A stretch of 64,000 nt of DNA from Uloborus diversus (Eukaryota). The first letter of the stretch is position 1; each line of letters starts with the position of its first letter. The DNA is taken from assembly GCF_026930045.1 (NCBI RefSeq), contig NC_072740.1, forward strand, positions 29,684,384 through 29,748,383, given 5' to 3'. The notes beneath the pieces are model-generated. The model had not been told where the DNA came from. It did no database searches and was given only the letters and a program-made list of their open reading frames with translations. The position numbers were made by a program, and so were the translations under genes. Of the stretch, positions 3,711-60,950 are shown piece after piece.

Positions 3711-3892
3711 GGATATTGACGAAACCTGGAGACGGTTTTCGCTAGAGGTGCAGCATCGTGAGGACCCGGTCGACGGTGATGCTGCCGAGCGTGCTGGTGG
3801 GAAAAATCAAAGGAACGTCAAAAACAGTCAAATGAAAGCAATAAGCAATCGTGATTGCTCAAAAAAAAAAAAAAAAAAAAAAAAGAGTTATA
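3710..3892 (+). repeat. GC-rich segment ending in an A27 tract; possible 3' end of a retroposed sequence
   Basis: A 27-nt poly-A run (3866-3892) follows a unique, GC-richer 150-bp segment and a short palindrome 'gcaatcgtgattgc'. No AATAAA lies immediately upstream. Confidence 0.3.

Positions 3893-5657: not shown

Positions 5658-5717
<60 letters not shown>
5658..5717. repeat. (TA)30 microsatellite
   Basis: Perfect TA dinucleotide run of 60 bp. Confidence 0.97.
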
Positions 5718-5720
<3 letters not shown>

Positions 5721-6264: not shown

Positions 6265-6794
6265 GTATATATATTACGGTAGAATTTTATTTTCATTAGA
6301 TATTTTATAAAACACTTTTTTGCGTACAATATATATATTGTATATTGAATTAAAAAATGTAAACTGCTTTGGGTAATATTACTTAATGTACCTTTTCTTA
6401 AGGGCTTGTTTAATTTCTGTTTCTGCCACCATGACCTACTGATAAATGTGCTTCATGAATTGCGGTGAACATTGAACATTTCTTCACAATACACGTAAAA
6501 TCTAATATTGTAGCTGACTGATTTATGGGATAGATTAGTTTTTAAACATTGACAAAACTGTCATTACGTCATATCTTTATAGTCTACGATACCCTTCGGA
6601 ATTTTTTCTACTATTTTTTTCAGCTAATTTTGATTTTACTATAATTCACTTTTATTAACGAATCGTCATAGTTTTCTTTCGTCAACAAAGACCTGTGTAC
6701 TATATTTTTTGAGTTCATAACAGTTACTAAAACTTGAAATTGAAACGCTGAAGCATATCAGCCATTATTAAAAACTCTATGAAAGCTATCAAGG

Positions 6795-11645: not shown

Positions 11646-12256
11646 TACAGTGTAAAAAAATTCCGAAACGTTACTGAGTATTTCCGTGTAACGTTTCGGG
11701 ATTTCTGTGGTTTTTATGCACTTCCTGGAAAAGTCAAGTATCCTTGACAAAAAGTTTCCTGGATTGCTACAGATCTAGCGAATGCAGACTTCTAGCTATT
11801 ATAAAAAACATTTTTAGCTCCCAGTTTAAAGATTAAATGAGCGTTTTTATAAAGTGTATCCGCTTTAGTTCAAGTGCGGCCCGTCCAGACTGATAAGGCG
11901 TCCAAAGGGTGCAAATCTGTCTATGGACTACGTAGCTTTGCAAGAATTGCAGGCGAGAAAAATTCTTGATACTTACTTGCAGTTCTGTCTTAGCTTTGGC
12001 CATGAATGAAATACTGCTTTTGGAACTTTCCCCGAAACGCAGTAAGATGTTTATTCTAAGATTCCAGAGATACGACTGGCTTTAAACGGGAAGAGTTCTG
12101 AATATTTTAGGGAGCTTCCAGGATAATTTCAGTAAGGTTACTGAATTTCAGCGGAAAACGTTCCTGGTTTTTCTAAGATATGTTACTGGAAGAAATTGGG
12201 CACATCAGATGCCCATTATTTTCCAGGAACGTTTCTGAATCGTTTTTACAGTGTAG
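11646..12256 (+). mobile_element. MITE-like non-autonomous TIR element, copy 1 (about 610 bp)
   Basis: Colinear with 18548-19199. For example, 'tacagtgtaaaaaaattccgaaacgttactgagtatttccgtg...ttcggg' matches 'tacactgtaaaaaaatctgtaaggttactggttatttccgtgg...ttcggg', and '...ggaaaacgttcctggttttt...attattttccaggaacgtttct...tttttacagtgtag' is shared. The termini 'TACAsTGTAAAAA' / 'TTTTTACAGTGTA' are inverted. Confidence 0.75.
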
Positions 12257-18547: not shown

Positions 18548-19199
18548 TTTTTTAAAATACACTGTAAAAAAATCTGTAAGGTTACTGGTTATTTCCGTGG
18601 AACGCTTCGGGATTTCACACGTTTTCACCTATTTCCCCGTAAAATCGACTATCTTTGAGACAAAGTTTCCTGAATTGCTACAAGTTAGACGAATATAGAC
18701 TTGTCACTGTTGAGAAAAACATTTTTAGCTGACAATTTAAAGATTGAATGAGCGTGTTTATTAAGTGTGTCGGCTTAAAGTTTGATTAAAACCTGCTCGA
18801 GTTGACTATGCCCCCCATGGGAGCGAATAAGTCACTGGATAGCCGCACCCTTGGAAGGCAGGAATTGCAGGCAAGGAATGTGTGTAGTTCTTGCTTGCCA
18901 ATTTGGCTTGCCTTTGCAGTGGTTTACTCTAATGCTTCGGGAGTTTTTTTGGTAAATCAGGAAGATTTTAATCCATTACATTAAACCTACTTGTTTTATT
19001 TAGGTTTCCGAGACATGACTGACTTAAGCACAGGAGGAGATTTCTCTATTCTTCAGAAAGTTTCGATTAAAATTTCAGAAAGGTTGCTGACTTTTAGCGG
19101 AAAACGTTCCTGGTTTTTGCAAGAAATGTTACTGGCAGAATTTGGGTATATCAGCTGCCTATTATTTTCCAGGAACGTTTCTAAAGCTTTTTTACAGTG
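18548..19199 (+). mobile_element. MITE-like non-autonomous TIR element, copy 2 (about 650 bp)
   Basis: Same family as 11646-12256 (see that entry) and in the same orientation. The flanks differ, so these are independent insertions; both copies are followed by 'tag'. Confidence 0.75.
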
Positions 19200-22100
19200 T
19201 AGAGGCATGTAACCGTTCTGTATCTTACTGGTGACATAACAGCAGTGCCAGATCTAGAAATTTTCTGAGGTGGGGCAAAACCTTAAAATGCCGTCTCCCC
19301 CAACACATCCATCCATCTTGTTTTAAATTTTTCTATCAAGTTGAATTTTCGTAATTTTAATTAACCTGTAAAGTTCGATATAGATTGACTACAAATTCAT
19401 TTTGTACTAGTAATGTCATTATGAGCAATTTTTTTGTTAAAACGGAGGCATACCGTAACACAAATTGCAATTAAAAACCTTCTCTGCTCCTCTTTTTTCC
19501 GATAACGAGTTCAGTGTTCGGATAAGAATGCTTTGGTTTTAATCTTCCAGTTTTCGCCACCTGCAGCTTTTTTGCTGCAAGGGAACAATGGATCTTCAAC
19601 TTACGGTCCGCGAACAGATTTTTCCCGGCCCGCGGGAAGCTTACAAACTGAGATTTTTTTCTTTCAATTGATAATTTTGAACATTTTGAAAGAAAACTAA
19701 GCCCAAAACCACTACTAGCCAGAGAAGAGCAGGGGGGGGGGGAGAACTGTCTCTTTCTACAGGAGGGTCTTCGACTTTCACTTTCCTCCTTCAAGCCATC
19801 AAAGATAGTTTAAAATTGCATTTGTGAGACTTTAATGTCGAAAAATTTCTGTAGGAGAGCCGTTTACCTGCCTTTTCTTCTTCATTTGACCAAAAATAGC
19901 CTTAATTGGGGACTTTGAGATTTTAATTTCTTGAAATTTCCGGGATGAGCCACGATCCCCTTCCGGAACGTCTCAATGAAAATATTTTAAAATTGCGGCT
20001 CCTTAAAAGAACAGCTCCAGAATTCTGACTATTTTTCTAACATCATAAAGGATGTCCAGAAATATGTTTTTAGAATATCATTCCAAAAAATTTTCCGAAT
20101 AGAGCATTTGACCCCTCCTCATCTCCTAAACATCACAAATTACCAAATTTTTCTCAACTTGGCAAATAATTTTCAGGACAATAATTTTCTGTAAAAAAAT
20201 CACATATGTGAATATATAGGCGGCTCCTGTAAGCTATCATTTTTTTTATCTTTTTTTATTTTTTGAAGTGAAGGACTATAAACCATGGGCCTGTAAAATC
20301 AGGACTGACACGCGACAAGACGTGCTCAATGCTAGTTTTGTCGCCAGTCCCTCCTCCTGTTACGCTAATTTTACTCTATGCGCACTACTTTAATTCCGAT
20401 AATGGTGAACATATGACCAAGCATTTCCATGAGTCAATAATTATCGGGAGTTGAGGAGCGAAGCGAGCAGTAGTTGCAGCCCCCTAGTTTCATAAAATAA
20501 AGCAAATGCCCTGTTTTGAATTTGCTCAATCCAAATCAACACTTTTAAAACTAATACGTCCTAAGTTACGGATGCTGGGCCGGTCATTTCGAATTTTTTC
20601 CCGGGGAGATTTTGCAGGGAAAAATAATTTTTACTTTCTATTCATGGTTACGGCTAGAAGGGGGAGGACGCGTCTTTTTATCTCAAAGTAATTAGCTAAC
20701 TTGGTTTTTTAAGGAACTGCGGTTAATCAAGATGTCCCGATAATGATCTGCAAAAATAACCCAATGCATAAAAGCAGAAAAAAGCTACTATCTTTCCTGT
20801 ACTAATTTCACTGGTAACGATTGATTAATGTATAAAGGAGCCTATGAAAACCTGCACACAGACCCACGATTCCCTACAACGTTCTTTGTTACACCACCGA
20901 GCATTTTTCATTTCAGAACAAATATGAGAGATTAGAATAAATAAAATAACTTCTACATTACATTTTTATGACTAAGTTTTCACTTTTATTTTGTAATTTA
21001 CCTCGTATCCAGAGCAAATAAGAAAAAAAGTAAACGTTAGATACTGCACACTTTTATAATCTTTTCTTATAGAAATCAATGCTAGCGAAAATATCTTTAA
21101 TAGCGTTTTTGAAGTTTTTACTTCTTCCTGAAAAATATTGAAATTAGCTTCCTTTTTTTTTGTCCAATTTGGAGATGAAACTATATTTCTCCTTTCTGCA
21201 CCCATGACGGAGAGCAATATGTTTATTTGCTGGATTTTGTAAATGCCTCTAGCAACATTTACAAGCTCATCCTCTCCCTGTTTCTAAGCAAAGGGTGCTT
21301 CAGAAAATTTGTGAAGAATGAACTTTTGTATGGTTTTAAGCATGAAATAATTTCAACCCCAAGCGAATATGTATGTATTTTTATTTTACCTTGACATCGT
21401 AAAATGTGCCACCCCTAAAATATGTCGCCATTAGGTAGTAGCACGGTGTGTACACAAAAAGCCAGTTGATCAACGAGGAAACAATCAATAATTAATATAA
21501 TTTTATTTAATTTTACTAAGGTCGAATTTATTTAAGTGGCTAGTACACGTGTTCAGGTTCAGTCCTATCAGAAGTGCTTACTTATCTCCCTTTGTAACAC
21601 CTAAAAACGCCTGTGTAAAGAGTCGCTTGCTGCTCGTCGCCCCGTTTTGCCGACTTCTTTTGTAAAATATGCATCTGTTTTTGAAAATAAATGACTCTAT
21701 AAGTCAATTTCAATTGTCAGCAAAATAAACGAGAAAGCACGAAACTCTTTTGCATTACTTTCTTTTTTTTCCCCAGTTTCAAATTGTTAATATTTAATAC
21801 TTACAGTACTTTCCAGAATTTCTTAGAATAAGCAATGTTTTTCTGCCGGAAGAACCACTCGAATTTGCCACCTCCTGAAGCTGCCGCCCGAGGCAAGAAT
21901 CTCGGATTGACCCCTTCCCCCGCTCCCATAGATCCGGCTGTGTATAATAGTAAGTTGAAACGAAACATTTAAATGAAGATTGGCTAACCATTGGCTAATT
22001 TGAGGCAGTTTATTTTTAACTCAAAATTAAGAACTGCAAATCATTTTATTTTTGCTATAAATAATTTATTAAGATGTAATTTTTTCATTTGGGTTCAAAA

Positions 22101-25960: not shown

Positions 25961-26974
25961 ATACAGTCAACTCTTGATAACTCGAAGTCCTAAGGGACCG
26001 GCTAAAACCTTCAAATAATCGGCAGTTCGAGTTGTCGAAAGCTACTTATCCAGCCTCCTAAAGATTTTTTTTCTTTTTTTTAGGAATAGTGCATAGTAGA
26101 TAGATTATAACGCTGATAGTTTCGATAAAACTAAATATTAGTAATTCATAAAATTATCTTTGCGGAGCGTGACAAATAATAACTTCGTTATCATTGCTGT
26201 TTATGAAACCAGTTCTTAAAGCAGTTTTAACTACTTAAAGCCATAAGCGAAGTTTCTTTTCTCCTGAATTCAGTTCACATTCTTTTAAAATGTCTTTTGC
26301 CCTAAAAGCACGATTATTTGAACTATCCAGAAAATAAAGAATACCTTTTTCATTTTTTTAATAAAATTTTAAATCTTTCAAAAATTAGCCAGCAATGAAA
26401 TTTTAGATTGTCAGCCACGGCAAAAAGTAGCCCGATCGGCTACTTTTCACGCTGTCTTGCAGGAATGCGCATTAAGGAGCACTGTAGTAAATTAATAATC
26501 CCACTCATACAAACTGATGAGAAAAACAATCTTATTTTGGCTACATTTTTATGCATAAATGAAAACGAAACTTTTGTAAAAACTTCGACTTAAAAGGAGT
26601 AAATTCGAGATAAAGATACAACTTTGAATTGAAAAAACTAAGTTATTTTGGGACCGAATGAAAACTTCGAGATAAAGGAATCATCGAGTTATAAGGCTTC
26701 GAGTTATGGAGAATCGACTGTATTAAGAGATCGATCACGAAATGAAACAATACCACGAAATCTGAAATGAAACAATACCATAAAATCCGATACAGACAAG
26801 TAACTTGACAGCTCACTTGCCAACTACAACTGTTACAGAAGCTTTGAACACTTAAAAAATAGTACTAAAGTTTCAAAAAACAATAGGCATTACTAAAAAA
26901 CCATTATACTTTTTTTATGCTCGAAAATAATTTGCAGGAAATATATTTGTGCTGTAGATAAAATAGTAAATGGG

Positions 26975-27014
26975 CCATTCCACGGAAAACAGTAATTTTG
27001 TCCCGCACGTGACG
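26975..27014 (+). repeat. Left arm of a 40-bp inverted-repeat pair flanking the mariner insertion; contains the GTCCCGCACGTGACG motif
   Basis: 'ccattccacggaaaacagtaattttgtcccgcacgtgacg' is near-perfectly inverted against 28700-28740. Confidence 0.7.
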
Positions 27015-27021
27015 CTTCATA

Positions 27022-28569
27022 TACGAGGCTTGTCCGTAAAACAAGTTCCACCGGCTGCCGCTAGGATCGTTTCTATGCGCGGCCAGGCAACAGAGGCAGG
27101 TTGTTTGGTTCCCCCACTCCAGGGCTGTCCAACTAAAAAGAGCCCACGGGCCAGAACTCCGGTCACTGATCACCTGGCGGGCCGCAGTTTGAAAAAGTTA
27201 AAACAGTAACCTTTTACTTCTTATACAATAAAAATTAGTAGTTGAATCAATTATTATAAAACAAAAGGATTACAAAACAGTTTCATTATTGCCAGCAGAA
27301 GGTCTATCAATGAACTGTCGGAGAGAGAACTCCTGTGACGATTCTTGTTAAAGTTCATCACCGAAAAAGCACTTTCGCATAAATATGTGCTCCCGAAATC
27401 AACAAAGGTCGTAGAGTCAGTGAGGGGGTAATTTTTTTAACCAATTGCAGGCAGGATTTGCTTATCTGAAATATTTCTCTCTTCCCTCCCTGTCTCCCCC
27501 CACCAAAGCGAGGCAATACTATTTCTAGGAATTCGTTTGAACACCAGCTTGCGGGGTGTGACTGCTTGATATTGACCTGTAGATGTCCTGTACCTTTTTC
27601 TCCCAGTACAATGAAAGGAGTAAAAGAGCGATCAAGAGGAAATTTCGAGAACCCTGGCTTGACCAAGAATGGTAGTCACGGATGCTTCATGATACCATAC
27701 AATGTCGAAATAAGAAATATGCTGAATAAGAAGTTGGCGGGCCGCACAATATGTGTTGGCGGGCCGTCAGTTGGACAGCCCTGCCCCACTCAAATCCCTC
27801 ACCAATCCAGCGTCGCTGCGACGTTTAGTCTTGGCTCAGCAGCCGTTAGCAATGGAGCTTCTTCTTGCGTCTCCCGCCAGCTGCGAGTAGCGGTCTGTTA
27901 TTCGTTTTCTGGCCGCTAAGAAGAAATCGGCGAAGGAAATTCACGAAGAACTTTGTCAAGTGTATGGAGAAGAGTGTATGAGCTCCGGGATGGTGCGCAG
28001 ATGGGTCAGGGGCTTTAAAAATGGCCGAACAGACGTCCACGACGAAGCCCGTGCAGGGCGGCCATCGGTTTCCGACGAAACAATTGCCAAAGTCGGAGCT
28101 GCAATGCTTGAAGATCGACGAATTGCAGTTCGGGAGCTGTGCGAAAAGATTCCGGAGGTCAGCAAAACCACAATTGACAAGATTTTGACTGAACATTTAG
28201 GCACAGCTCTCATCGAAAGATTTGGATGGGAAATGGTGTCTCACCCACCCTACAGTCCAGACTTAGCACCAAGTGACTTCCATCTCTTCCCCGAGTTGAA
28301 GAAAAACCTTGGCGGAACCCAATTCCAGACAGATGAAGAGGTACAAAACGCGGTTGTTCGTTTTCTACACGGACAGACGGCACAGTTCTATGACTCTGGT
28401 TTGAAGAAGTGGGTTCCTCAAATGCAAAAGTGCATAGAACGCAACTGCGATTATGTAGAAAAATAAAAGAAAGACTGAACTTTCCGAAAATGTACTTTTC
28501 TTTGCAATTAAACCAGTTTTTTTTATGTGAAAAAAATTCGTGGAACTTATTTTACGGACACGCCTCGTA
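27022..28569 (+). mobile_element. Internally deleted mariner-family element with about 35-bp TIRs and a TA target-site duplication
   Basis: The 5' TIR 'tacgaggcttgtccgtaaaacaagttccac' (27022) is inverted against the 3' TIR 'gtggaacttattttacggacacgcctcgta' (28540-28569). TA lies at 27020-21 and at 28570-71. Encodes the mariner transposase remnant listed below. Confidence 0.8.
27852..28466 (+). pseudogene. Mariner transposase pseudogene: N-terminal HTH region fused in frame to the C-terminal tail, with the catalytic DDD core deleted
   Basis: The translation 'MELLLASPASCE*RSVIRFLAAKKKSAKEIHEELCQVYGEECMSSGMVRRWVRGFKNGRTDVHDEARAGRPS...TIDKILTEHLG' is a mariner HTH/paired-like N-terminus. It joins directly to 'WEMVSHPPYSPDLAPSDFHLFPELKKNLGG...FYDSGLKKWVPQMQKCIERNCDYVEK', the mariner C-terminus. 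There is an in-frame stop at about 27888, and about 200 aa of catalytic domain are missing. Confidence 0.85.
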
Positions 28570-28699
28570 TATCATAAAAAATAATACCTTAAAAGGATGA
28601 TGAACAAAATTTTGTTGCTTAAGAAACCACAAACACATGTGTGACTTCTTCAGCAAAAACTTTCTTCAAAAATTATTTCTTTTTTATGAAATATATTAA

Positions 28700-28740
28700 C
28701 CGTCACGTGCGGGAGAAAATGACCGTTTTCAATGGAATGG
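28700..28740 (-). repeat. Right arm of the inverted-repeat pair flanking the mariner insertion
   Basis: 'ccgtcacgtgcgggagaaaatgaccgttttcaatggaatgg' is the reverse complement of 26975-27014 with 3 mismatches. Confidence 0.7.
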
Positions 28741-28915
28741 ACATATACATATTTTTTTTTCAATGGTTTAAATAATTATTTCTAAACTAATGAGATGTTT
28801 CCTTTACGTTGGAACCATAGCTTTCAAAATCTGCAGTTTGTTTCGTCATTGCTGTATTAATAGAGCAAAAATATTAGCTTATTCATAAGCAAGTTACCAG
28901 AGGTTGTCTTTGGAT

Positions 28916-31539: not shown

Positions 31540-31800
31540 TTTTATACATAATTCGATGAATAAAATGAAAATAAATAAAATAACAACGTGACAGAGAGAC
31601 ATGCAAACAGTATACAATTTACTGATATTTTCTGTTGAAGAATTTGACACTGTGGAAATACAATACTCTGATGTCTGAACGACTCAAAATTCTCTGAAAT
31701 CTGGAGCCAGCTTTCATACTTAACGGTCGAAAGTAAAATAATAATAATTGAAAAAATCATCAATAAAGAACTCAAAAAAAAAAAAAAAAAAAAAAAAAAC
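31540..31800 (+). repeat. Probable retroposed 3' end: AATAAA signal followed by an A26 tail
   Basis: '...tcatcaataaagaactc(A)26': a canonical polyadenylation hexamer lies 7 nt before a 26-nt poly-A run (31775-31800). The 5' boundary is undefined. Confidence 0.4.
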
Positions 31801-32699: not shown

Positions 32700-34545
32700 G
32701 GGCTCCTTAGCAGTTGAGTTCTTTAAAGTGAGGGGGGGGGGGGCGATTATTTTCACAATAAAGGACGATTTTTCAAGAAACTCTCCAGTTTATTTCTTTA
32801 AGAAGAAAAGGGAGGTTTAAGAACGTTTTGTCAGGTTTCAAAAGATAAGAGAGATTTGTGGCAAAGCTCCGATAACGGAAAGGAATTTCTGAACTCCCGG
32901 TTTGAAATTTACCTTAGCGACCAAAGCATAAGAATCGAAAAAACCAACAAATCCTCTAATTAACAAAGTAGCGTCATAGAACACTATAAGTCAACATTAA
33001 TTGAGAGCGGCTTTAAAAGGAAAAACCAAACCCTTTTTTGAGCTTTTTGGGGGAAGAAAGTCATCTATTAAACAAAACCTATTTTGAGCTATTTGGGGTA
33101 AGAAAGCCATCTATTAAACACTTCCGGGGGTTTTTTTTGGATGCATTTCGTATATTGGACTTCCAAAACAGAAAATAAACAAATTGGATATGAGAACTCA
33201 ACAAGGAGTCATGGTAAGATATGCGTTTCATACGAAAGGTTACAGAATTTGGGATCTCAAAAATCGCGAAGTGACAGAAACGCTGAATGTTAAATTCGAT
33301 GAAAATAAATTCTGGACGAAACCCCCCCCCCCCCAGGAACGAGAAACAGAGGGACACAGTTTTATTTCACTACTGAGTAAATCTGAAGTAGAAGAAGAAT
33401 ATCCTGAAAATTATAAAATAGCATGTTGAGAATTAAATGGGTTAAAGCAAGTCAAACGCAAAATAAAGAATACAGGGATAAGTATTATTCTATTGACACG
33501 ATGGTTCTAAAGTCCGAATCGTGAAGCCGAGGTTTATTGTTCTGAAAATAACATTGAATATGACACAAAATATTTTAATTTCACCTTGTGATGATAATTC
33601 AAGAAAAGTATAGGATTTTTATGAAGATAGGGGGGATAATTCAAGTATGCTAGAAGCTAACATTTCCGAGATTTAAAATTGGCAAAACGGAATGGCTCAA
33701 GAAATTCAGGTGATATGAGAAAGAAACGTTTACGTATTGGTTCCACTGAATGAAAGTTTTAGAAAGAAAAAAGGGTACAGATGTTTTTTTTTTAATTTAA
33801 AAACAAATGAGCAGAATGAAATAATGCGCTTCAAGACCAGACTGGTAATTTGAAATACCCACCAGGTGGGGGGGGGGGTACTTTTCGAAAGTGTTCTCTC
33901 CAGTAATTTCCTTTCCTTTGATTAAGGCTTTCTTTTCAGTTTTTGTGTATAAGCTACATTGAGTCCATTTCCATGTAGATGTTTGCAATGAGTATCTAAA
34001 TGCGGATGTAAAAGAGGAGATTTGTGAAACAACCTGAAAGGTTTGTCCGTCCCTGAAATCTAAATTTTGTCTGTAAATTGAATAAATCATTGTCATTCTG
34101 ATACAGATTACGCCTCGAATCACGACGACCGGATTTCAATGGGGGGGGGGGGGCTTGTAGTGTTTTTGGATAGGGTACGAATAATATGGTGGTACATTCA
34201 AACAAAAATGCGTACAACTGTCAACGATGGAAGCGGAGTATATTTCAATTAGTGAATAATCTAAGGATGTGAGTTAAAGGAATTTTAAATCAATTGGCTA
34301 CGAAAAGAGTTCAGAATTTTAGATTGTCACAGTACAGAGTACTATTAATCAATCTAGTTGCAATCGATTTTTCTAGTTCTGCAATAGAAAATTGCAGAAC
34401 TAAGCAGATTGATGTGGGGTACTATTTCCTAAGGATTTTGATTGATAAAAATGAATTTGGAATACAATTTGATGAAACTAAAAATAATGTAGCTGATTGT
34501 TTTACAAAACCTTTCTCTAGGGAAAATTTACATAAAGCTTGAATT
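32700..34545 (+). mobile_element. Degraded, internally deleted Ty1/copia-type LTR-retrotransposon pol fragment
   Basis: Integrase-core-like 'KPTNPLINKVAS*NTI' resembles TPQQNGVAERKNRTI. 'KGYRIWDLKNREVTETLNVKFDE' at 33230-33300 is the copia integrase C-terminal motif. 'EEICETT*KVCP' at 34014-34049 resembles the RT motif EEIYMKQPEGF, and 'STMEAEYISISE' at about 34218-34253 is the RNase H motif. The pol C-terminus 'KQIDVGYYFLRILIDKNEFGIQFDETKNNVADCFTKPFSRENLHKA' lies at 34400-34542. The remnant is interrupted by G/C homopolymers at 32742, 33322, 33868 and 34141 and by frameshifts. No LTRs identified. Confidence 0.7.
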
Positions 34546-37500: not shown

Positions 37501-38718
37501 CTGTGAATGTTTCATTTTTTCTCATGAAAACAGTATAACATAATATAAAGTTATGTAATTTTTGGAGTAGTAAAACCAATTTTTAACTTTAATACTAGTA
37601 CTCATAAACCTGCAGATTTTATTATACCGAGTGAAAAATTGTTTCCGTTTAGTAGCTCTGAAATTTTAAACCGTCACATATTTATAGTTTTTATCTATGT
37701 AAATTTTAAAAGGTTAATAGGATAAAGTATTATCTAATCTATAATAATCAGTTTAGAATAAAAACCATTCTGTGCAGTCTAAATGCTGTATACTGCACAT
37801 ATGGTGTGAAATAAAATTAGTTTGTTACTAGTATTTTTCAAATAAAGTAGGTCCAAATGCAACGTATAACATTAAAAAAAGAAGAAAACCATGAAAATAT
37901 TCTGTTTTACCATAAAAGAAAAATAAATGCATATAATTGCATGCATCAAGTTAAAATAAACTTAAAGGTTTAATGGATTGCATATTGAAAAACATTTCTC
38001 ACGTTATGCTGCACATTTTAGCATTACAATAATGCTGGAAGTGAAAAAAGTACTTTTAGTGAAGATACGATGTAGTATTTTCAGTTATATATAAAAAAAC
38101 CTTTCTCATTTTTACTACCTCCATGGATCAAAAAGTTTTGTATTATGAAAAAGCTATAACTGTTCTTAAAATAAAGCTTCAGACCATATTTTGCAATTTC
38201 CTTCAATTTGTAAATTTTTAAGTCTGCAATAGAGCTAAAAGTTTTTTGTAGAAATGAAAATGCACCACTTTTTCTTCTTTAACATGTGTTTATAAAATAT
38301 TGAGATGGGGCATTGATTTATTTTGTCTACAACGAAATTAATATCAATAAAACATATATTTAGCAGCAGTTAACTATTTTTATGTAAAAGTGTTTTATAT
38401 TTCTTTATTTGTCGCTTTTCATAGCCTAAAACATTTTTGTTGTTGAAAAACTTAAGAAAAGGAACAGATTTCGTATGTAGGCTGATTTATACAACGTACA
38501 TACTGACTCAATTGCTTTACTTTTCGATATTGTTCTTCAGCTGTAAAAGCAGTGATTTCAGCTATGAAAAGAAACGATAGGGTGAAAAAACCCTTTTGCA
38601 TAAAAATTGATGACTTCATTTTATGGTTTACTGCTGTTAATTTTACTGTACAAATCATTTATAAAACCGTGTACTACTGCTGCTTTTATGGCACAATTCA
38701 GTTGATTCCGCAGCATAA

Positions 38719-38978
38719 TACTGCTAACTTTACAGTTTGATACTGTAAGTTTTACAGGGCAGTTTTATTAAAAAGCAGTATATTACTGCTAATTTTACAG
38801 TTTGATACTGTAAGTTTTACAGGGCAGTTCTATTAAAAAGCAGTATATTACTGCTAATTTTACAGTTTATCACTGTAAATTTCACAGTAAAAGTCTGTTA
38901 TAAAACAGTATATTACTGCAAATTTTACAGTTTAGAATTGTAATTTTTGCAGTTTTTCTTTGGAATGCGAGCTGCCAG
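38719..38978. repeat. Minisatellite: four tandem copies of a 65-bp unit
   Basis: Unit 'tactgctaattttacagtttgatactgtaagttttacagggcagttctattaaaaagcagtatat' starts at 38719, 38784, 38849 and 38914, with increasing divergence. It contains the internal palindromic core 'tactgtaa/ttacagta'. Confidence 0.9.
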
Positions 38979-44935: not shown

Positions 44936-46175
44936 TTTTTTAACTATACCATTCGTAATGAATAAAATATTATATCTACTATTTAATGAAATACTATAAT
45001 ACAATTTAATCACGTGTACAACCGCAAAATCATAAAATATCTTTATTTCTCACGTAATCATCTTCAGTTAAAGAATGAAATACACTATTAAAAAATTGGT
45101 ATGGGTTATTAGAGGATGCGGCCGCAGAGGTCAGGAAAGGACATTTTACTTAAGCTATACAGTTCACCCTCTCATCAAGCATATTCAGGGCAAATTTGAA
45201 GTTATTCTGAACAGAGGTTCTTTTCATACTGTATTTTGAACGAGGAATTACAATTACCCTGCATAATGTTGCGACTGAAGTTCTTAACAAGTTAGACGCG
45301 TTACTTAGTTATCGTAAACAACAGACCGTAAGAATGGTTTGAAAAATCGTCTAAAACGGGGGAAAAATCACTCAACTTTTAAAAGAAAACTCTTTTACGG
45401 ACATTAGAACTCACCCATTAAAGATTGGATACAGGGTTATAAATATGGGCATTTATATTTTTTGAACTGTAATTCACATCAAAATGTCAAAGTTATGGAC
45501 CGTATAACTGTTCAAACTGTTGAGTAGCTATGTAAATAGATATCGACACAATCCAATGCGGGTTGCAAGGTACATAGACAGATAAAATAGAGATTGACAC
45601 TAGTAGTACGAGATCCGGCTGCAGAATCATTGCAGTCATAGAGTCAAAAACTAATTTTTATATTACATTATGAAAGGGGCAAAATGTTTTGGCTGGATTG
45701 CCTAGAAAGAAGTGCTCGCAAGTATTTTTTATCAAATTAATATTGTTTGACATTTTGGGGTAAAAATGACGCATTTATTATTAAAATAAACTATACTCTA
45801 CTTCAAAGAAATATACTTACACTGTTAAATTTTTTTTTTAAAATCAAATGTTACTGTAAAATTTTAGTTTCCTCGGTAGGACACAGCAACCAATTGGAGC
45901 TGGGATCGCTTATTTCTCCGGTATAAATTACCGTAAAAATCAGCAATACTTAAGTCCGCCATTTTACAGTAACAATTACCAGAAAATCTTCCTGAATTTT
46001 TAACAGTGTAAAAACTTGAAAAGCTATGGTTGCCGTTGCGCAACTGACCGCTACCTATTCGAAGCCACATGTAAACGTGTACTATTAGTGCACATCTATG
46101 CACTCATAAAATGTAGTCATCATTTACGTATGAAATCAAAGCTAATTTTTTTCTGAACGAGATAAACTAAGGTAT

Positions 46176-46608
46176 GCAAAAAAATTTTGAAAAAAAATAG
46201 AACCGACTTCAAAATTGCTCTAAAAAGTGAAAAATAATTTTATTCTTTAAACACCATCGATAATACTTTTAAACATAATTTTTGAAGTTGGCGCAAAAAC
46301 GATCGATAAAATCATTCACAGCCATAACTCAACTACAAGTATAAATTTAACCACGTCCAGTTTCTTCACGCATTGATGACAGCATATTTGAGTAACGATA
46401 TAAATGTTTCGTTCCTAAGTTCGGATGATTTTTTGATAAAAATGTGAACGAAGCATGGTTACAATGGATTTTACTTTTTGCTTTTGCGCCAACTTCAAAA
46501 ATTATGTTTAAAAGTATTATCGATGGTGTTTAAAGAATAAAATTATTTTTCACTTTTTAGAGCAATTTTGAAGTCGGTTCTATTTTTTTTCAAAATTTTT
46601 TTTATTTC
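46176..46608. repeat. Near-perfect palindrome: 125-bp inverted arms (100% identical by eye) around a 185-bp unique spacer
   Basis: The left arm 46177-46299 'aaaaaaattttgaaaaaaaatagaaccgacttcaaaattgctctaaaaagtgaaaaataattttattctttaaacaccatcgataatacttttaaacataatttttgaagttggcgcaaaa' is the exact reverse complement of 46485-46607. Confidence 0.9.
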
Positions 46609-47013
46609 ATTCTTTTTAGTGTAAATGTAGATATTTCAGTAAAATTTAGACGTTACCTAGTAAGAAGTGCGGCTCTATATCACTGTATTGCTTTAGAAAA
46701 GCCTTTATTCAAAATTATCATTACAATTACTATTAATGTTACAGTTATATGGCACCAAACTTTTATAACAATGAGTTTTATATTGTCGCGTAGATGAAGA
46801 TAGCGAAGACAATGTGAAAGCCAAATGAAGCGAATACTCCTTAGTCTCAACTCGAGATCTTTATTCAGAACCACGAATGAACGTTACATCTCCTTATATA
46901 CAACTTGAAAAAGTGCTGGAACTTTCCAGACTTTAAAAGATACAGAAATTAATAGAACATTCGAGAAAATACGGGAAACAGTAGAAACGAAATTTTAGTA
47001 ACATTCACTTTGT

Positions 47014-47085
47014 CCTAGTCGGGATTTGAACCCTGGTTGCTCGTGTGGGAGACGAGAATTCTACCACTGAGCCACCGTTATCCTC
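47014..47085 (-). pseudogene. tRNA-Gly(CCC)-derived pseudogene or SINE head
   Basis: The minus strand reads 'GTGGCTCAGTGGTAGAATTCTCGTCTCCCACACGAGCAACCAGGGTTCAAATCCCGAC'. The A box, D arm and anticodon arm (stem CTCGT/ACGAG, loop CTCCCAC, anticodon CCC) are intact and close to animal tRNA-Gly-CCC. The T stem (CCAGG/CCCGA) and acceptor stem no longer pair, with changes that look like CpG-to-CpA decay. Confidence 0.55.
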
Positions 47086-48635
47086 GGATGAAAAGAGCGA
47101 ACTTCGCTACAATATGATTTTAATCATTTAATAGGGAAATTTACTGTTTTTTGCCCATAACTTTTTATCTAAAGAACAAATATGGTCAAACAAAGTAATG
47201 GGACCTAAGTTGAGCCATCCTCTATCCATTAAAAAAAGAATCATCAAAATCGGTTCACTAGGTGAGACGCTATGAGTGGACAAACAAAAAAAAAACATAC
47301 ATACGGTATGAACTGATAACCGCCTCCTTTTTGAAGTCGGTTAAAAATTAATTTCTGCAGCCGATATTTTTATTCGTATTTATCCAATGGATATATTTTA
47401 TGTGACATTCATACTTGAAACGACGGGATAAATGCTGAAGCACAGGTAATAAAATTTGACTAATCTTGTGCGTAGTTTGTACGTCGATTAACCAAAGTGC
47501 AAGTTGATTCAATTAAATTTACATAGAAAGTTTGCTAAGTTCTGTAAGCTTTAGCTTTAAGCTAAGTAACAATTTAAACTTAGCATGCAGTACACCTTAA
47601 AACAGCATTTCAAGACTAACCAGTTTTCAAAGATTTAGGAAGAAAAGCACATTCATCTCGCTTCAGCTTGGCTAATGGAATAATTCCCTTGACCACTTAG
47701 CTTTAAGTTTTAATCCTTTGTTAACTTGTCAATCAAAATCAGTTAACAGTAATAAATCCCAAAATGATTGAGCAGAAATTTTCTTGGGGAATAAGAAGAT
47801 AAATAGTGGTAACCGTTTGAAAAAACATACATCTAAGTATTAGCATAATTTTTCTTTTTGAAACTTTTACTATACATTTTACATTTATTCAACTTCTGTA
47901 TAGATATATTAAATATCAAACAATGCATTTGGAAATAATAGGGCTACATATAAACTTTATTTTTGTATCTTCTATATTTTTACGCAACATTTCAGCTATC
48001 AATTACAAGCCTATACAATGATAAACTTATTCATTAAAAACTGATTTATAACAGAATATTAACTGTCAAGGAAAATCTTTTCAAATTGATTGATAATAAA
48101 ATTGAAACCAGACAACCATGTCAGGCACATAGCTAGAACTTTGTTAAGGGGGGGGGGGGGGTTCAAGGTTGCACGAACTTCAAAAGAGGAGGCATGCTAA
48201 AGCAAAATTAGTAGCTCATATTTACGTTAAAAAATAAATCCAATTAAAAGTATTTATTAAAATATGATAATTAACTAAAATTAATTAAATAATTGAAATT
48301 GATAGAGCATTTATTTAAAAAATTAGTTAACAAAAATTTTACATTAAGTGGCAAAGAAATTATTGTCAGTTTATAAAATTAACATTAAACTGAAAGTTAT
48401 CCCATACTAAGTTTTCATACATGGATAGAAAAATTCCATCACATAAGCTTCCTCGGTTCTGATGCTTTGAAAATGAGTGATATAATTCCTATTAATAAAA
48501 AGTTCACAATAAAAGAAAATCGGAAAACGAAAACTGTTCTATGGATTACTTGGAAAATGCAGGTAATAATTTAATAAAATATTAAAGCGTTGTAATATAT
48601 TTCAACAAAATATGTACAAGTCATTTTATTTGAAA

Positions 48636-49401
48636 AAATAAAGAAATCTATATCTATCGAGTCGAATGTATAACTGTATGAATGCAATATAACGTAATTC
48701 CGCCTCCCTGTCCGATTTGAACAAGATTTCTGGCAAAATTCAACCACCCTCTCGACGAAAATGTTAGCAAGGTCTCATTTAAAAAGCTTGAACTAGTTCT
48801 TTATTTATCTACGTTTATAACATTCTTTTGATAATACGAAATTGAATGAAATGTCTAATTTTTTCCGTTTTCAAATTATCATTTCTAACCATCATTTAAA
48901 AGCTTGAACTAACTATTAACTCTTTGATGGACGGAGACTTCCTTTGCTGCAATCATTAAAAGAAAAAAAAAAAAAAAAAAAAGCGTACTGCCGTTTTTTT
49001 TTATCGTTATTATTATTTTTTTGCAACGAATTGGTAAAATAAGCTATCTTAGGATCCGTTATGGTATTTTTTTTTCTTTCTAATGGGGCTTAGTTAGATG
49101 CTTTAGCCTTTTCGGACCTAGTGCGAACCACCGATATGGCATCGAGTCTTTCAAATGCTACCATTAAGGCACGGATGTGACTGGCACAAGAAATTTTGGT
49201 GCCGAGTTTCCACCAGATAGAGACACTTGAGCTCTCTTCGATGCGAAACTGCGCTAGGGGTTTAATTTTGTCAAGCCAAACGAATAGCTGAGAGATCTTT
49301 TACCTGTCGATTAATAGAATGTATAGTGAATGAAATTAAGCATCTATGTATTTTTATTTTAACAACATTTTGGAAAATGCAAATGATTGCTTTTTATAAA
49401 T

Positions 49402-49450
<49 letters not shown>

Positions 49451-50816
49451 GTTATGAATGATTTGAACATTATTGGCGATTTTCCCCTGATGTTTTCAAT
49501 TTGATGCTTCATTTAAAAGACCAAGAGGAGGCATCGCACCCTCCTATCTCACCACCAAACACGAGTTCAGTTTATTCTGCCAATACAAAAAAACTTCTGT
49601 ACAAATCAGTCTTTTTCAAATTAAAAATTAAAACAACTACAGCGAAAATGGCAATATACTCTACTCTATTACGAATTATCGCGTCAATATTTGATTATAA
49701 CCTGGTTACTTTACTGTCTTTATTAGCAGTAAGCAAGTGTTCGACTCAAAAATTTCATAATTTGGAGTCAAACGTCAAATTTTGATCATTAAGGTAATCT
49801 TCGTCCCGTTTGCGATTGCGATAATACAGTAGCATTAAATTAGATACATTTTCAACAAGATGTAATAAGCATAAAGCTAGCCAATTTTTGGAATCAAAAC
49901 TTATAGGTTTCTTATAGCCTCAGTTTGTAAATTTTTTGCTCCTCAGTCATCTGATGTTCAAAAGTCTAAAGTCAATCGTTTGTAAAAACTCTTAGAATGA
50001 TTGTGGCTAAAAATCCAGTAATGATTTAAATCTACCTTTCAAAATTCATGTAACAATAATAACACTTCTGATTCTTTCATTTTCAAGTTGGTATAACTGC
50101 CATTTTAGGAGCGATTTTGTAATCATCCTGTATTCTCGAAAGCATATCATATTTTATAACGTAGGTATTGACTTTTTTTCTTTCTTTTATGTGATGTTAG
50201 TAAAAGATATTCTATTGCAAGAAATAGCAAATAATTTTAACTTGAAGAAATTAAGAGTTAAAAAAAATAATTCTAATATAGACGTGAAATACACAAGAAA
50301 ATTTACCTCGCATTCACCTTTTCTTAATTATACGCGCAGTAAATAGCAGAAACTTTCACCTAGTAATTTATAGTTAAATGCACATGTCCGTTTTTTGTTC
50401 CGTTTAATGCTACCTTCGTAATTTACTAATGATGGATGCATAGATGCTTATTAAATAATTCCTCAGTAAAAAGGCGGTAATACTAATCAGAAAATTTATT
50501 CCAATGAAACAAATAGAAATTTGCTTTTCTTGAAAAACGGAACAACATCGAAGAAAATTTTTTTCTTTAGTTAAAAATGACTAGCCGCTCTTCTCTTGGG
50601 ACCATAGACTCACATTTCAGTAAGATTTAAAAGTACGAATTTCAAATAATTACTTTTAAATTACTTGTGTTAATATGACCGAACTTGCAATTTCATAAAC
50701 TGATCACAGTAAAATATTCAAGTAATTTTCAATTTCATTCTTCGCTTCATAAAATTTTGATACAGCAAAAGTAATTTCGTTGCATCAGCTTCAAATTTAT
50801 TTATTCACTTATGTTC

Positions 50817-50847
<31 letters not shown>

Positions 50848-51795
50848 TTTCAGGATTACAGTTTAAAAGTTGTAAGCTTCCGGGGAGATAAGTAATCTAT
50901 TATTGTTAAAAATAAACTAAAAGTTTAAATAAGATTATTAATCAAAATATAAAATGAATCTGAAATGAATCATCCCAAAAATATAAAGAGCAAAAATAAA
51001 TTAATTAATAATTAATGTTTATTTTTCCTCATCCTCAAACACACGTAATGTGTAGAATTTCTTTTTCGTTGCTGTCTGAACTTAGTTTTAAAATGGGAAA
51101 ACATATTAACACATAAATTGCTCGTATTTTTAAGAAAACTTTAAAAGGGTTTTCTTACTTTACTGTTCACCACAAAGGTATTTATTTATCTTACAACTTA
51201 CCTAGTTTGTGTACACTTAATTTTCTTTTGATTACAATTTTGTTCAAGATATGTTTCCTATAAGCGCGTGGTAGAAAAAAACTGTGTGTTAAAACAGAAA
51301 ATAGTAGGAATTTCAATTACTGATTCACTAGGGATGCACCTCACTCTGGCTGTCCTTCGTGCAGCATGTGTCAAGGAAATCAAGTCCAAACGGAAAAAAA
51401 GTCAAAACAAAAAGAAGAAAGAAAGAAAACCACACCAATGAGACTGCGGAATGTTTGTTTTCAATTACTTTGCCGATAGCAATCTGGTGGACTGAGGGAA
51501 AGGGGCCGAATTTCAAGGTCACAACTTCGGACGGAGTACGCGACACAGCAAGAGACAGGCGGCAACTGGGAACCCGCAGTTATTGCACGAGGTTCTCGTG
51601 TTCTGAATTGACTCGGACGCGGGAAAATATCCGATTAATGGGAATATTTAAGGGGAAAATACCAGGTTTCATAAAATTTCTCTCTTTGAAAAATTTTTGT
51701 TGACGTGAGGTGCAACAACTGAGAAAAAGCAGACAGTGGTCTTTCGGAAAGGGGGGGTCCGGACCCCATGGACCCCTCCCTTTGGCTACGTCTTT
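48636..51795 (+). repeat. Copy 2 of the dispersed 2.5-kb repeat, expanded to 3.2 kb by a copy-specific insertion
   Basis: See the entry for copy 1. Colinear blocks are 48636-49375 vs 227-1055, 50140-51320 vs 1095-2230, and 51320-51795 vs 2230-2752. The G-run is G8 here vs G14 in copy 1. An A31 tract at 50815 replaces T10G10 in copy 1. Confidence 0.85.
49375..50140 (-). mobile_element. Roughly 765-bp insertion present only in repeat copy 2, ending in a 45-nt poly-A on the minus strand (T45 at 49403-49447); a retroposon-like insertion
   Basis: It is absent from the orthologous position in copy 1 (1055-1095). The long homopolymer at one end suggests a poly-A-tailed retroposed element inserted in minus orientation. 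There is no tRNA-like head and no recognisable ORF product (ORF 49501-49785 has no detectable similarity). Confidence 0.45.
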
Positions 51796-53149
51796 GACCA
51801 TGTTTTCTTTCACGCTAGCGGTACCCGCACGGCGCGGCGTTGCTCGTGAAAGAAAAATTAAAAGACCAGATGCTTCGCCATTATGTAAAGCAAGGGTTCT
51901 CAATCTTTTAGACATTGCGACCCCCTTTTTAGACTAAGTATTTTGGTGACCCCCCCCCCCAAGTTTTAACTCTGTCTAAACCCTAAAACAAGCTAACTAC
52001 ACAAATGGTTAAGTTTTATCCTTAGAAACAAAAGTAACTAGTAAAATAAGCATGCATTTTTGTCTCTTGAATTATTTAATAAGAGACAGAAGTTGACCTT
52101 ACTGATTTTATAAACATGCAGTAGTTTTATGACAATTGTTACCTTGCGCTCCTTCAAGTCCTATATCATTGCACACAGTACGAAAAACACAGCAATAAAT
52201 TAATTTTCTTTGAACTTTTCTTACACAGATCGCGAACCTCTGGACCATTCCGCGACCCATCTAAGGGTCGCGACCCAATGTTTGAGAACCCCTGATATTG
52301 AGGGTGGTTATGAAATAACGTGAGGTGCTCAGAGGCCTCTAGCGAGTCAAGTATTGGACGAAACTCACTCAAAATAAATAGGCGTACAATGTACACAGTA
52401 GACCATGGGATTTCGATTTCTGAAACAATAAATAAAGTTACAAAAATATCTACGAGTGTAAATTTTGGAGTTGAAAAGGTGGAAATACTCTCATATTGGA
52501 GAATTTAACGCCAACCGATCAAATGAGCATCTTTTTTATAAACAAATGATGATTTTTTTTTACTATTACGTTGTTGTTTCAAGAACTGCCATACGATGCA
52601 TAACCTTTCCCACACATCCGAATTAATTTGTCCCACCTGTAACATCATTCAAGTTCTCAGAATTGCAATATCGAGAACATGTTCTCGATACACAACATTT
52701 TCAAGAAATCACTGTAGTGTTACAAGAAGAAACATTGGAAAACCGAGGGGCCTATACCATAAGATATGCACAACTAATGAATGCCATAGAAGAAATATTG
52801 CTGTATCTAAAATCGAATGAGAGATCGTTCACCACCCTGCTTGAATATGGTCTAAAAAACTCATTCTCGCTGCAGTACCAAAATTTCATTGCGGTGACTT
52901 TTTGTGGTTTTTGTTTTAATATTAGAAATTGAAATTCGATTGTGGTTTTATTGAACGTCCTTTGTAAGTAACAATCAATTGTAGCTCAAAAATTGATGTT
53001 TGCTGCACTGTTATTCATTTAACCCTTACAATATACATTTGTTCAACATTCAGTAAGTTCATGTAACTTTCGGTACGAGAATAGTAATATTGTTCTTTTG
53101 AGATCTAAGTAGGGTCAAATAAAGGAGATCACCCGAGCATAATCAACGA

Positions 53150-56307: not shown

Positions 56308-57745
56308 CAGTAGTTACATACACCCCTGTTTGTGAAAATTGCAACACCACGAAGGACTTACGTGAGTGAGCTGAAAATTGCAGGAATGTAAGGTAGGGCG
56401 TAATATGCAAATGATTAGAATTGCAGACCGGTAGCGCATGCGTATGCTGAGCAGCACCCTCTGAACGGTGGATCGAACCGGATATAAATAGGCGGCTGTA
56501 GCGAGCCGTGTATGATTATTGGCGGTTATATGCTAGAGTACACATTAACTGAATCTGTACTATGCCTCTTCGACGAAAGAAAGCGAAATTTGAGCAAATT
56601 TCGGAGTTTGAACGGTGCATAATCGTTGGCCTTCGTGAAGCTGGATTGTCTTATCGTGCAGTAGCCGCTCGTGTGCAGCGTAAAAGCAGCACAATCATGC
56701 GTGTTTGGAAGTAGAGGACGGACGAGGGTCGGACAGCTCGGAAATCCGGGAGTGGACCCCGAAATGTGACGTCAGCTCGCGATGACAAACACCTGGTGCG
56801 TATGGCGCTGACGGACTGCACAGCTTCTTCTAGACAATTGGCAGCACAGTGGTCAACAGCTACAGGTGTTTCATCGTGTGCTTCATCAATTCGGAGACGT
56901 CTGCTGCAGCGTGGGCTGCGCGCAAGGATTCCTTTATACAGGATTCCTCGTGCGCAAAACCGTCGCCGCCTGCGGATACAATAGGCCAATGTGCATAGGA
57001 GCTGGCGTGCTGATTGGCAGCAGGTCGTCTTTTCTAACGAATCCCGCTTCAATTTGTGGCACCGTGATGGCCGAATTCGTGTCAGGCGCTATGCCGGTGA
57101 ACGGCACATTCCGGGTGCAATATCGAACGCCGGTGGACGAACACCCGGAGTTATGGTCTGTGGTGCCATAGAATATCATGGACGATCACAATTGCTATGA
57201 ATTGTGGGCAGTTTGAACAGTACCTGATGCATAAACGAAGTTTTACAGCCACAAGCTATTCCTTTCCTGCAAGGATTGCCAGGGGCTGTATTCCAGCAGG
57301 ATAATGCCCGTCCACATGTCGCCAGGACTGTAAAATCCGACCTTGATTCGCAGCAGGTACAGCTTTCTTTCTTGGCCTGCATATTCCCCGGATATGTCAC
57401 CGATTGAACATGTGTGGGATTTCGCTGGGCGGCGTCTCGCTCGTGATCCTCGTTCTGTTGCTTCGACAGACGAACTTTGGTTGGGCATACAAACAATATG
57501 GAATGCTCTTCTGCAGGCAGATATTCAAACTTTGTTTCACTCCATGCCGAGTCGTGTAGCAGCTCTTATTGTGGCGCGTGGTGGCCACACAAAATACTTA
57601 TTTCTATCTCTTTTAATTGTTTGTTTGGTTTGAAAATGTAATCATTTATTTGTACCATTACCACTCAACTGTGTATTAAATTTCATTCAGCTATGATGCT
57701 TCCTTTATGGTGTTGCAATTTTCACAAACAGGAGTGTAGTAATTG
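56308..57745 (+). mobile_element. Tc1-like DNA transposon of about 1.44 kb with roughly 40-bp TIRs
   Basis: The 5' TIR 'cagtagttacatacacccctgtttgtgaaaattgcaacacc' (56308-56348) follows a TA. The 3' TIR 'ggtgttgcaattttcacaaacaggagtgtagtaattg' (57709-57745) is its inverted counterpart, with the inner 24 nt identical. A TATA-like 'atataaatagg' lies upstream of the ORF. Confidence 0.9.
56562..57603 (+). pseudogene. Tc1-like (DD34E) transposase with three in-frame stops and one frameshift
   Basis: 'MPLRRKKAKFEQISEFERCIIVGLREAGLSYRAVAARVQRKSSTIMRVWK*' matches the Tc1 HTH N-terminus. '...WQQVVFSNESRFNL...GRIRVRR...' and 'FQQDNARPHVAR' are DDE-core motifs. 'LSWPAYSPDMSPIEHVWD...LWLGIQTIW...MPSRVAALIVARGGHTKY' in frame +1 is the Tc1 C-terminus. 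There are stops at about 56712, 56982 and 57198, and a frameshift near 57350. Confidence 0.9.
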
Positions 57746-59424: not shown

Positions 59425-60950
59425 AATAAAATAACCGTTCAGCTGGTCCAGACAGAATTAAAGCAGAGCTTTTGAAGTTCAAGGACCAAGATCAGCTACG
59501 TGCTATCCATGAAATCATTTGTAGAGCATGGCAATTGGAAGTATTGCCCAATGAGTGGGACAATGGATCTATTTGCCTTATTTTTAAGAAGGGGGACAAA
59601 TTTGAATGTGCCAACTATAGAGGATTCACTCTACTTAATACTGCTTTTAAAATTTTATCCTACGTGCTTTGCACTAGGCTGCTACCACACGTGGAGAAAG
59701 TTATTTTATCATATCAATGTGGTTTTCAAAGAGGAAAATCCACTTCCAACCAAATTCATGCCCTAAGACAAATCATTGAGAAAACAAAAGAATTTAATAT
59801 CAGTACATCCCACCTTTTTATCGATTACAAGGCTGCATATGACAGCATTAGAAGAGACAGGCTCTTCGCTGCCATGGAAGAGCTCGGTATCCCATTAAAG
59901 CTTGTTAACCTTACGAGAGCAACTCTTAGAAGAGTCAAATGCCAGGTGAAGATGCAGAACGAATACTCCGAGCCCTTCCTTCTACACCGACAGAGGGTTG
60001 AGGCAAGGGGATTCTCTTGCATGTATCCTTTTCAACCTTGCCCTTGAGAAAGTCATTAGATCTTCTGGTATCAACACTCGAGGCACTATTTTTCAATGAA
60101 CAGTACAGATTCTTGCATATGCCGATGACATCGACATAATTGGAAGATCCAAAAGAGCTGTCACAGATGCTTTCATCGCTATTGAGGCTGCTTCTAAAGA
60201 AATGGGCCTTAGCATTAATGCTGAAAAAACCAAATATATGGAAATAAACCATAAATCATTTGATTCTACCCCATTCTTTGTTAATGGCTACTCATTCGAA
60301 TCCGTTGAGGAGTTTAAATATCTTGGAAGTGTCATCACTAGAAACAATGATATTAGCGTTGAAGTCAATTGCCGCCTAACTATGGCAAACAAATGCTACT
60401 TTGGTTTGAAAAGCCAATTAAAAAGTAAACTTCTTTGCCAAAGTACAAAAATAAACATATACAAGACCCTTTTAAGACCAGTCCTAACTTATGGAAGTGA
60501 GTGTTGGGCTTTAACTAAAGCAGAAGAAGAGAAATTGATGGTTTTTGAAAGGAAAATTTCAAGAAGAATTTTTGGTGCTGTCCAGGAAAACAACAGATGG
60601 CGCACTCTCTATAATTTTGAGATATATAAAAAATTCTATAAACAGCCAGATATTATCCACTTTATTAAAGCCAATCGCATCAGATGGCTGGGGCACCTCT
60701 TTAGACTAGGTAGTAGGTTCCCAATCCATAAAGTCACCTTCACAATTCCAGATGGTGCGCGCGAGGGACCGCCCACCAACCAGATGGCTCGACTGTGCCG
60801 AAAAAGACTCAAAAACTGTTGACCTCAGTGGATGGAGGAAATCTGTTTCTGACAGGACGGGATGGAGGAAACTGATTGAGACGGTCTTGGCCTGCCCTAG
60901 GCTGTAGTGCCGAAAAAGAAGAAAGAAGAATTTTCAATAAAAGTTTTGCA
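59425..60950 (+). mobile_element. 5'-truncated non-LTR (LINE) retrotransposon: reverse transcriptase plus C-terminal tail
   Basis: The translation contains 'GPDRIKAELLKFKDQ...', 'FQRGKSTSNQIHALRQIIEK', 'LFIDYKAAYDSI', a YADD box ('LAYADDIDII'), 'GLSINAEKTKYMEI', and the conserved LINE tail 'GSECWALTKAEEEKLMVFERKISRRIFG...IRWLGHL...DRTGWRKLIETV'. The frame is broken near 60047 and 60100. No endonuclease or ORF1 lies upstream. Confidence 0.85.

Follow-up and report, generated by a model that had tools for sequence, protein, structure and literature searches.

How does a transposon-rich stretch of DNA, in which every other repeat is visibly diverged, come to contain an inverted repeat whose two arms are identical over their full length? 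The question is raised by a short locus in the window, the 64-kb stretch of DNA analysed here, which is eukaryotic, 33% GC and apparently gene-free, no host exon having been recognised in its 64 kb. A sequence-only reading that drew attention to the locus asked whether it is very recent or is maintained by conversion or selection. This proved to be the right framing, the foldback being clean and recently homogeneous, and the sections below consider in turn its structure, its age, its relatives and the ways in which it may have arisen.

Structure and boundaries of the hairpin

Position-by-position comparison of the arms, together with an exhaustive scan for inverted repeats free of mismatches, defines a foldback of 425 bp, made up of two 121-nt inverted arms, 100% complementary over 121 nt with 0 mismatches, and a 183-nt spacer between them. 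The structure originally described, with 125-bp arms and a 185-bp loop at 46176-46608, thus stands, and its figures shift by 2-6 nt; the perfect identity reported over about 123 nt likewise holds, but over 121 nt. The parts of the locus and its borders are as follows.

46168-46177, + strand: left flank, TAAGGTATGC, neither complementary to the right flank nor directly repeated in it
46178-46298, no strand assigned: left arm, 121 nt, 22% GC, starting with AAAAAAATTTTGAAAAAAAATAG and finishing with GTTGGCGCAAAA
46299-46481, no strand assigned: spacer, 183 nt, unique, 33% GC, of ordinary complexity; the loop if the locus is transcribed
46299-46325, no strand assigned: possible degraded inward continuation of the repeat, in register with 46455-46481 and 15/27 complementary
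46476-46487, + strand: inner right junction, TTTTGC followed directly by TTTTGC, the final 6 nt of the spacer being the same as the first 6 nt of the arm
46482-46602, no strand assigned: right arm, reverse-complementary to the left arm at every position
46603-46612, + strand: right flank, TATTTCATTC, whose first T extends the T7 run of the arm to T8

The outer edges of the hairpin are abrupt, with an outward extension score of 0 in all nearby registers, and the inner edges are nearly as abrupt; since the first T of the right flank lengthens the T7 run of the arm to T8, the exact position of the right junction is ambiguous within that run. The left arm is preceded by GGTATGC and the right arm is followed by TATTTCA, and the check for a target-site duplication (TSD) that had been proposed for the repeat ends found none of any length, in any register, directly at the arm ends. 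The only word common to both flanks is TAT, which on the left side does not touch the arm, and the 2-10 bp TSD flanking the terminal inverted repeats (TIRs) that generically identifies a MITE is likewise absent from these flanks. A positive control for TSD detection on two other TIR elements of the window was not clean, being disturbed by a (TA)n tract in the flank and by alignments that ran too far, and was excluded.

Read directly at the junction, the spacer ends in TTTTTGC, the reverse complement of the GCAAAAA found at the left arm's end (46293-46299). The hexamer at the inner junction would be compatible with a microhomology-guided switch point but is only suggestive, because simple priming would leave one copy of it and two are present. 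Further inwards, 15 of 27 positions pair where 7.6 would be expected, a level that 0.36% of random pairs of the same geometry reach; the length of 27 nt was picked post hoc, however, and an unbiased extension score gives p ~0.07, so that an inward continuation of the arms would be marginal. A general repeat finder reported the hairpin as 136 nt at 96%, because TAAAATC matches in register beyond an 8-nt mismatch patch.

In composition, the description of the arms as AT-rich and of low complexity is borne out in a mild sense only: their GC content of 0.22 lies at the 4.5th percentile of 121-nt windows in the 64-kb stretch and their trinucleotide entropy at the 5.8th percentile of the window background, where the spacer falls at the 69th. 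The termini are homopolymer-rich (A7 T4 G A8) and several T4+ runs occur within the arms. No tandem repeat was found by TRF in 45800-47200 at a score of at least 30, and the arms are thus without tandem sub-repeats. A palindromic loop was considered and rejected, as the two halves of the spacer have no significant self-complementarity in gapped alignment and score no better than shuffles (193 of 500 score equally well). The folding check suggested for the hairpin was carried out and gave a long stem on either strand (dG ~-209 kcal/mol, z ~-24), an energy that follows directly from the inverted repeat and adds no independent support to any account of it.

Reality and age of the repeat

The 121-nt hairpin is the longest perfect short-range inverted repeat of the window, the runner-up being a (TA)n tract of 34 nt. 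In 20 composition-matched 64-kb sequences simulated under a Markov-1 model, the longest perfect short-range inverted repeat spanned 13-16 nt, against 121 nt in the real sequence, and chance is thereby excluded. When the window is compared with itself, the hairpin proves to belong to no larger repeat and the other repeat pairs are 69.5-91.3% identical, so that the earlier estimate of 15-25% divergence for everything else repetitive here was roughly right. The other repeats of the window are far older than the locus.

Zero differences over 121 sites imply an arm divergence below ~2.4% (95%). Insect mutation rates are of the order of 1-5e-9 per site per generation, and under this assumed rate the 2.4% bound allows up to ~2.5-12 million generations since the arms became identical. 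The proposal that such perfection calls for selection or conversion is accordingly weaker than claimed: with divergence bounded only at ~2.4%, perfect arms can be accounted for without selection and without continuing conversion. The locus is a real, young, structurally clean non-coding DNA foldback of an ordinary kind; there is no indication that it has a function, most likely it has none, and we infer that it is neutral.

Searches for relatives and coding content

No further copy of the arm, the loop, the flanks or the 1-kb region was found in the 64-kb window, either by blastn at word size 7 or by self-blast of the whole window, and no arm word of at least 15 nt recurs elsewhere in these 64 kb; the observation that the arms share no terminal motif with the other elements present is upheld by both results. 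The hairpin is therefore present as a single copy in 64 kb, whereas several transposon families are represented twice in the same stretch. One candidate for a nearby parental or diverged copy was rejected: the exact 14-mer AACCGACTTCAAAA recurs at 47329-47342 without extending into a longer alignment, an equal score being reached by 25% of random chunks, and the motif is not over-represented, its observed count being reached in 16 of 100 shuffles. Three sub-sequences, a 29-mer and a 22-mer from the arm and a 27-mer from the loop, had no exact match in metagenome, prokaryotic-genome or viral contigs, and Rfam returned no family at its gathering threshold in the window and none at E-values up to 5 for the hairpin locally.

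The 425-bp element contains no open reading frame of at least 30 aa within it, and exact-protein look-ups for four open reading frames of the window found nothing on record. A 60-aa open frame that crosses the arm and the spacer has no match in Pfam, and in a phmmer search of 1.84 billion protein representatives its sole match was P0113, a 3,637-aa bacterial T9SS repeat adhesin (E = 4e-48). This protein was rejected as a relative: the E-value is spurious because HMMER summed 21 copies of one chance match (~25 bits). As this case shows, E-values built from multiple stretches can mislead when the target is a tandem-repeat protein.

Origin of the inverted repeat

The account that best explains the hairpin, favoured tentatively and at a little short of an even chance, takes one arm to be an in-place copy of the other, produced by a template switch in replication or repair that either created the repeat or re-homogenised an older one. 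On one recent occasion, while the DNA was being replicated or a break repaired, the nascent strand would have switched templates over a short range, copied 121 nt of nearby sequence as its reverse complement and then returned to its own template. The outcome would have been an inverted repeat newly made from unique local sequence, or else the re-homogenised outer part of an older and decayed repeat. Template-switch mutations, known from the quasi-palindrome correction of Ripley and from the four-point model of Loytynoja and Goldman (PMC5453318; PMC8794818), are likewise reverse-complement copies of a nearby segment and, like the hairpin, have a perfect inverted repeat, sharp boundaries and no TSD, all produced in one step. 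Template switching makes perfect hairpins in a single event and also homogenises the arms of imperfect repeats (PMC5453318, PMC8794818), as PMC8604942 documents too. Those events are documented elsewhere, whereas here the mechanism and the direction of copying would have to be read from the present-day sequence.

Several features of the locus point to such copying. Its anatomy matches the four-point model, with an exact 121-nt reverse-complement copy, 183 nt apart, and a sharp outer edge; 100% arm identity together with abrupt boundaries is the expected product of a one-step reverse-complement copy, and a missing TSD is what in-place copying predicts, whereas almost every cut-and-paste transposon should leave one. 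That arm, spacer and flanks each occur once in the 64 kb also speaks for copying. Both junctions appear to lie in short repeated or homopolymeric sequence (the doubled TTTTGC inside, the T-run outside), as would be expected for switch points, and the termini, which look homopolymeric and not like recognisable transposase-binding ends, would also favour copying. The weak inward similarity (15/27) may fit the homogenisation of an older repeat. Against a template switch stands the size of the event, since documented short-range events involve tens of bases, the largest in PMC8794818 being 59 bp, and a 121-nt copy across a 183-nt spacer would be unusually large beside that maximum. The junction hexamer, present twice and not once, is ill suited to simple microhomology priming, and the residual inner similarity is marginal at the p-value given above.

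In arthropods, transposons insert anew far more often than inverted duplications of this size arise spontaneously, which also counts against copying. The principal rival, which we regard as possible but unlikely, is a recently inserted non-autonomous foldback DNA transposon (a long-TIR MITE) whose class generates no TSD, such as a Spy-like element. The arms would then have arrived already identical, and the element would be multi-copy elsewhere in the genome. The hairpin is MITE-like (425 bp, non-coding, AT-rich, with 121-nt terminal inverted repeats) and lies in a transposon-rich window with mariner, Tc1, copia and non-LTR remnants and a second foldback-shaped element at 5705-6274. Spy elements, found in insects, arachnids and other invertebrates, produce no TSD, integrate between a host AAA and TTT, and have TIRs of 9-1,474 bp without sub-repeat structure (PMC4122938). 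The hairpin begins with AAA and ends with TTT, as 6.1% of arbitrary positions do, and lacks both a TSD and sub-repeats as Spy does; like Spy and its non-autonomous derivatives (PMC4122938), it combines the absence of a TSD, AAA...TTT borders, and long TIRs, of variable length in Spy, without sub-repeats. The Spy terminal consensus 5'-GGANNNNG-3' is missing here (PMC4122938), however: GGA/TCC occurs nowhere in the arm, the nearest relaxed match to the consensus, GAACCGAC, lies 22 nt inside it, and the A/T termini of the hairpin sit in longer homopolymer runs, which are unlike known transposase-binding ends. With four Spy features that fit and a terminal motif that does not, we have not filed the hairpin as Spy and keep that assignment as a live rival. 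Autonomous Spy copies encode a related DDE (IS5/PIF-like) transposase. In the 64 kb there is no second copy of the hairpin and, among the long frames, no transposase of Spy/PIF type, though the absence of a transposase from a span of this length says little.

For the other cut-and-paste superfamilies, a missing TSD beside perfect 121-nt arms is contradictory, since an insertion young enough to have such arms should still carry its TSD, and the other transposon copies of the window, at 9-30% divergence, give no sign of recent transposition. MITEs and the Drosophila Foldback (FB) elements resemble the hairpin in being small, non-coding, AT-rich, bounded by inverted repeats and mostly arm; they differ in that the hairpin has no TSD, no recognisable superfamily terminus and no arm sub-repeats, and occurs once in 64 kb. 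The hallmarks of Drosophila FB are arms composed of tandem sub-repeats and a 9-bp TSD, and the hairpin has neither, there being no TRF tandem repeat and no TSD. The expectation that many copies with TSDs would mark the locus as an ordinary MITE needs amending in this light: because Spy inserts without TSDs (PMC4122938), copy number and empty sites are the proper test of a transposon, and TSDs are not.

Three further candidates for a hairpin-forming element were set aside. A terminal hairpin of a parvovirus or densovirus is disfavoured, as the arms enclose no viral gene and viral matches are lacking, a Helitron would carry 5'-TC and CTRR-3' ends that are lacking here, and a Pol III hairpin transcript is at odds with the several T4+ terminator runs in the arms.

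Possible hairpin-RNA gene or assembly artefact

The sequence-only reading emphasised an hpRNA locus. As a functional gene, such a locus would be transcribed through both arms, the product being diced to 21-nt endo-siRNAs against a target located elsewhere, and selection would keep the arms identical. The emphasis finds no support in the present analysis, and we consider a selected hpRNA gene very improbable. The sequence would, from either strand, fold to a perfect 121-bp duplex, and new hpRNAs of Drosophila simulans have near-perfect arms and were born by local inverted duplication (PMC10317233). Drosophila hpRNA loci such as hp-CG4068, Nmy/Tmy and the de novo loci of D. simulans resemble the hairpin as inverted repeats of a few hundred nt with a long perfect duplex, near-perfect in the arms where they are young (PMC10317233). 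An hpRNA is defined by yielding siRNAs that depend on Dcr-2, by a primary transcript that accumulates when dcr-2 is mutated, and by the homology of its arms to the gene or transposon it targets (PMC10317233). Whereas the arms of the Drosophila loci stem from identifiable genes or transposons (PMC10317233), those of the hairpin have no such parent or target in the window, where they match nothing else, have no homology to genes or transposons and no Rfam match; they are AT-rich and non-coding, with several T4+ runs. Their perfection, with the divergence bound of 2.4%, needs no selection.

Base rates speak in the same direction. A Drosophila genome contains some tens of validated hpRNAs. Inverted repeats, by comparison, are very common, LIRBase listing 297,317 with arms above 400 nt in 77 invertebrate genomes after discarding shorter ones as possible MITEs (PMC8728187). 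The base rate for an hpRNA is accordingly low. Any through-transcript of the locus would nevertheless form a 121-bp perfect duplex, as its base sequence dictates. In arthropod RNAi a long perfect duplex is a Dicer-2 substrate, and the dicing of such a hypothetical transcript is predicted behaviour if the locus is transcribed, not evidence for an hpRNA gene. A variant that joins the two ideas, an hpRNA caught at birth, would have one template switch just create the perfect hairpin within an existing transcription unit, already yielding Dicer-2 siRNAs against an AT-rich, UTR-like target at another genomic site; we give it little credence, but if true it would carry the de novo emergence of hpRNAs seen in D. 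simulans to another arthropod lineage.

An artefact of library or assembly, in which a chimeric foldback molecule was taken into the consensus, would account for exact identity between two close segments, which is a hallmark of assembly artefacts, and the hairpin is the only perfect repeat above 34 nt in the window. Known chimeras of this type, which stem from missed adapters, template-complement read-through or MDA inversions, are spacer-less palindromes or show a single onward strand switch, however, and the unique 183-nt spacer and the unique flanks on both sides of the hairpin would need two precise switches in the consensus. The window is also free of Ns and of other irregularities, and an artefactual origin strikes us as highly unlikely.

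Significance of the locus

As it stands, the hairpin matters little, short inverted repeats being abundant in invertebrate genomes and no function being indicated. It would gain interest if an outgroup or an allele without one of the arms were found, as the copying event proposed here would then be an unusually large single-step template-switch product, and such a one-arm ancestor would make the locus a concrete illustration of how the raw material of hairpin-RNA genes arises. If the element should instead prove multi-copy, with uninterrupted AAATTT empty sites, it would represent a Spy-like family without the canonical terminal motif.

Other elements of the window

The second foldback-shaped element, at 5705-6274, is unrelated in sequence to the 46-kb hairpin and has arms of ~200 nt at 77% identity and a spacer of ~170 nt. 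A 92-bp tandem pair, 91% identical, occupies its spacer region (5899-6082), and the element is embedded in a (TA)n microsatellite (5658-5717). Closest to the hairpin, at a distance of 415 nt and oriented towards it, is a tRNA-Gly(CCC)-like fragment (47018-47075, - strand) with good A and B boxes but without an acceptor stem; it scores 23.4 bits against an Rfam gathering threshold of 29 bits, is not called by ARAGORN and probably represents either a pseudogene of a tRNA or the head of a SINE derived from one.

Among the transposons, a mariner-like element at 26960-28755 is internally deleted and has 64-nt terminal inverted repeats that are 83% identical; its 191-aa frame (27891-28463) fuses the HTH region to a C-terminal DDE tail (HPPYSPDLAPSDFHLF). 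A Tc1-like transposase remnant (HTH_Tnp_Tc3_2, DDE_3) lies at 56715-57630 on the + strand, and a fragment of a Ty1/copia-type polymerase, SH3-like, at 33118-33426 on the same strand. The remnant of a non-LTR retrotransposon reverse transcriptase (RVT_1) extends over two frames at 59430-60819 (+ strand); its named relatives are all from insects (Colias, Cacopsylla, Periplaneta, Blattella and Cataglyphis), the best match being only 62% identical. These relatives indicate an arthropod host, most likely an insect, whose lineage appears to be unsampled among the proteins searched.

Two dispersed repeats were also recorded, one a pair of ~2.5-3 kb in direct orientation (227-2751 and 48638-51796; 73-85% identity) in which no protein domain can be recognised and which we leave unclassified, and the other a pair at 11646-12256 and 18558-19202 with 70% identity. 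Tandem repetition is represented by a TG-rich minisatellite with a period of ~89 nt (3416-3709) and by a 65-bp tandem repeat, 79-92% identical, at 38710-38953. Pure A or T tracts of 24-43 nt, which are unusually long, occur at 31774-31800, 49405-49447, 50817-50845 and 3861-3884, and some of them, situated at the edges of dispersed repeats, could be retroposon tails.
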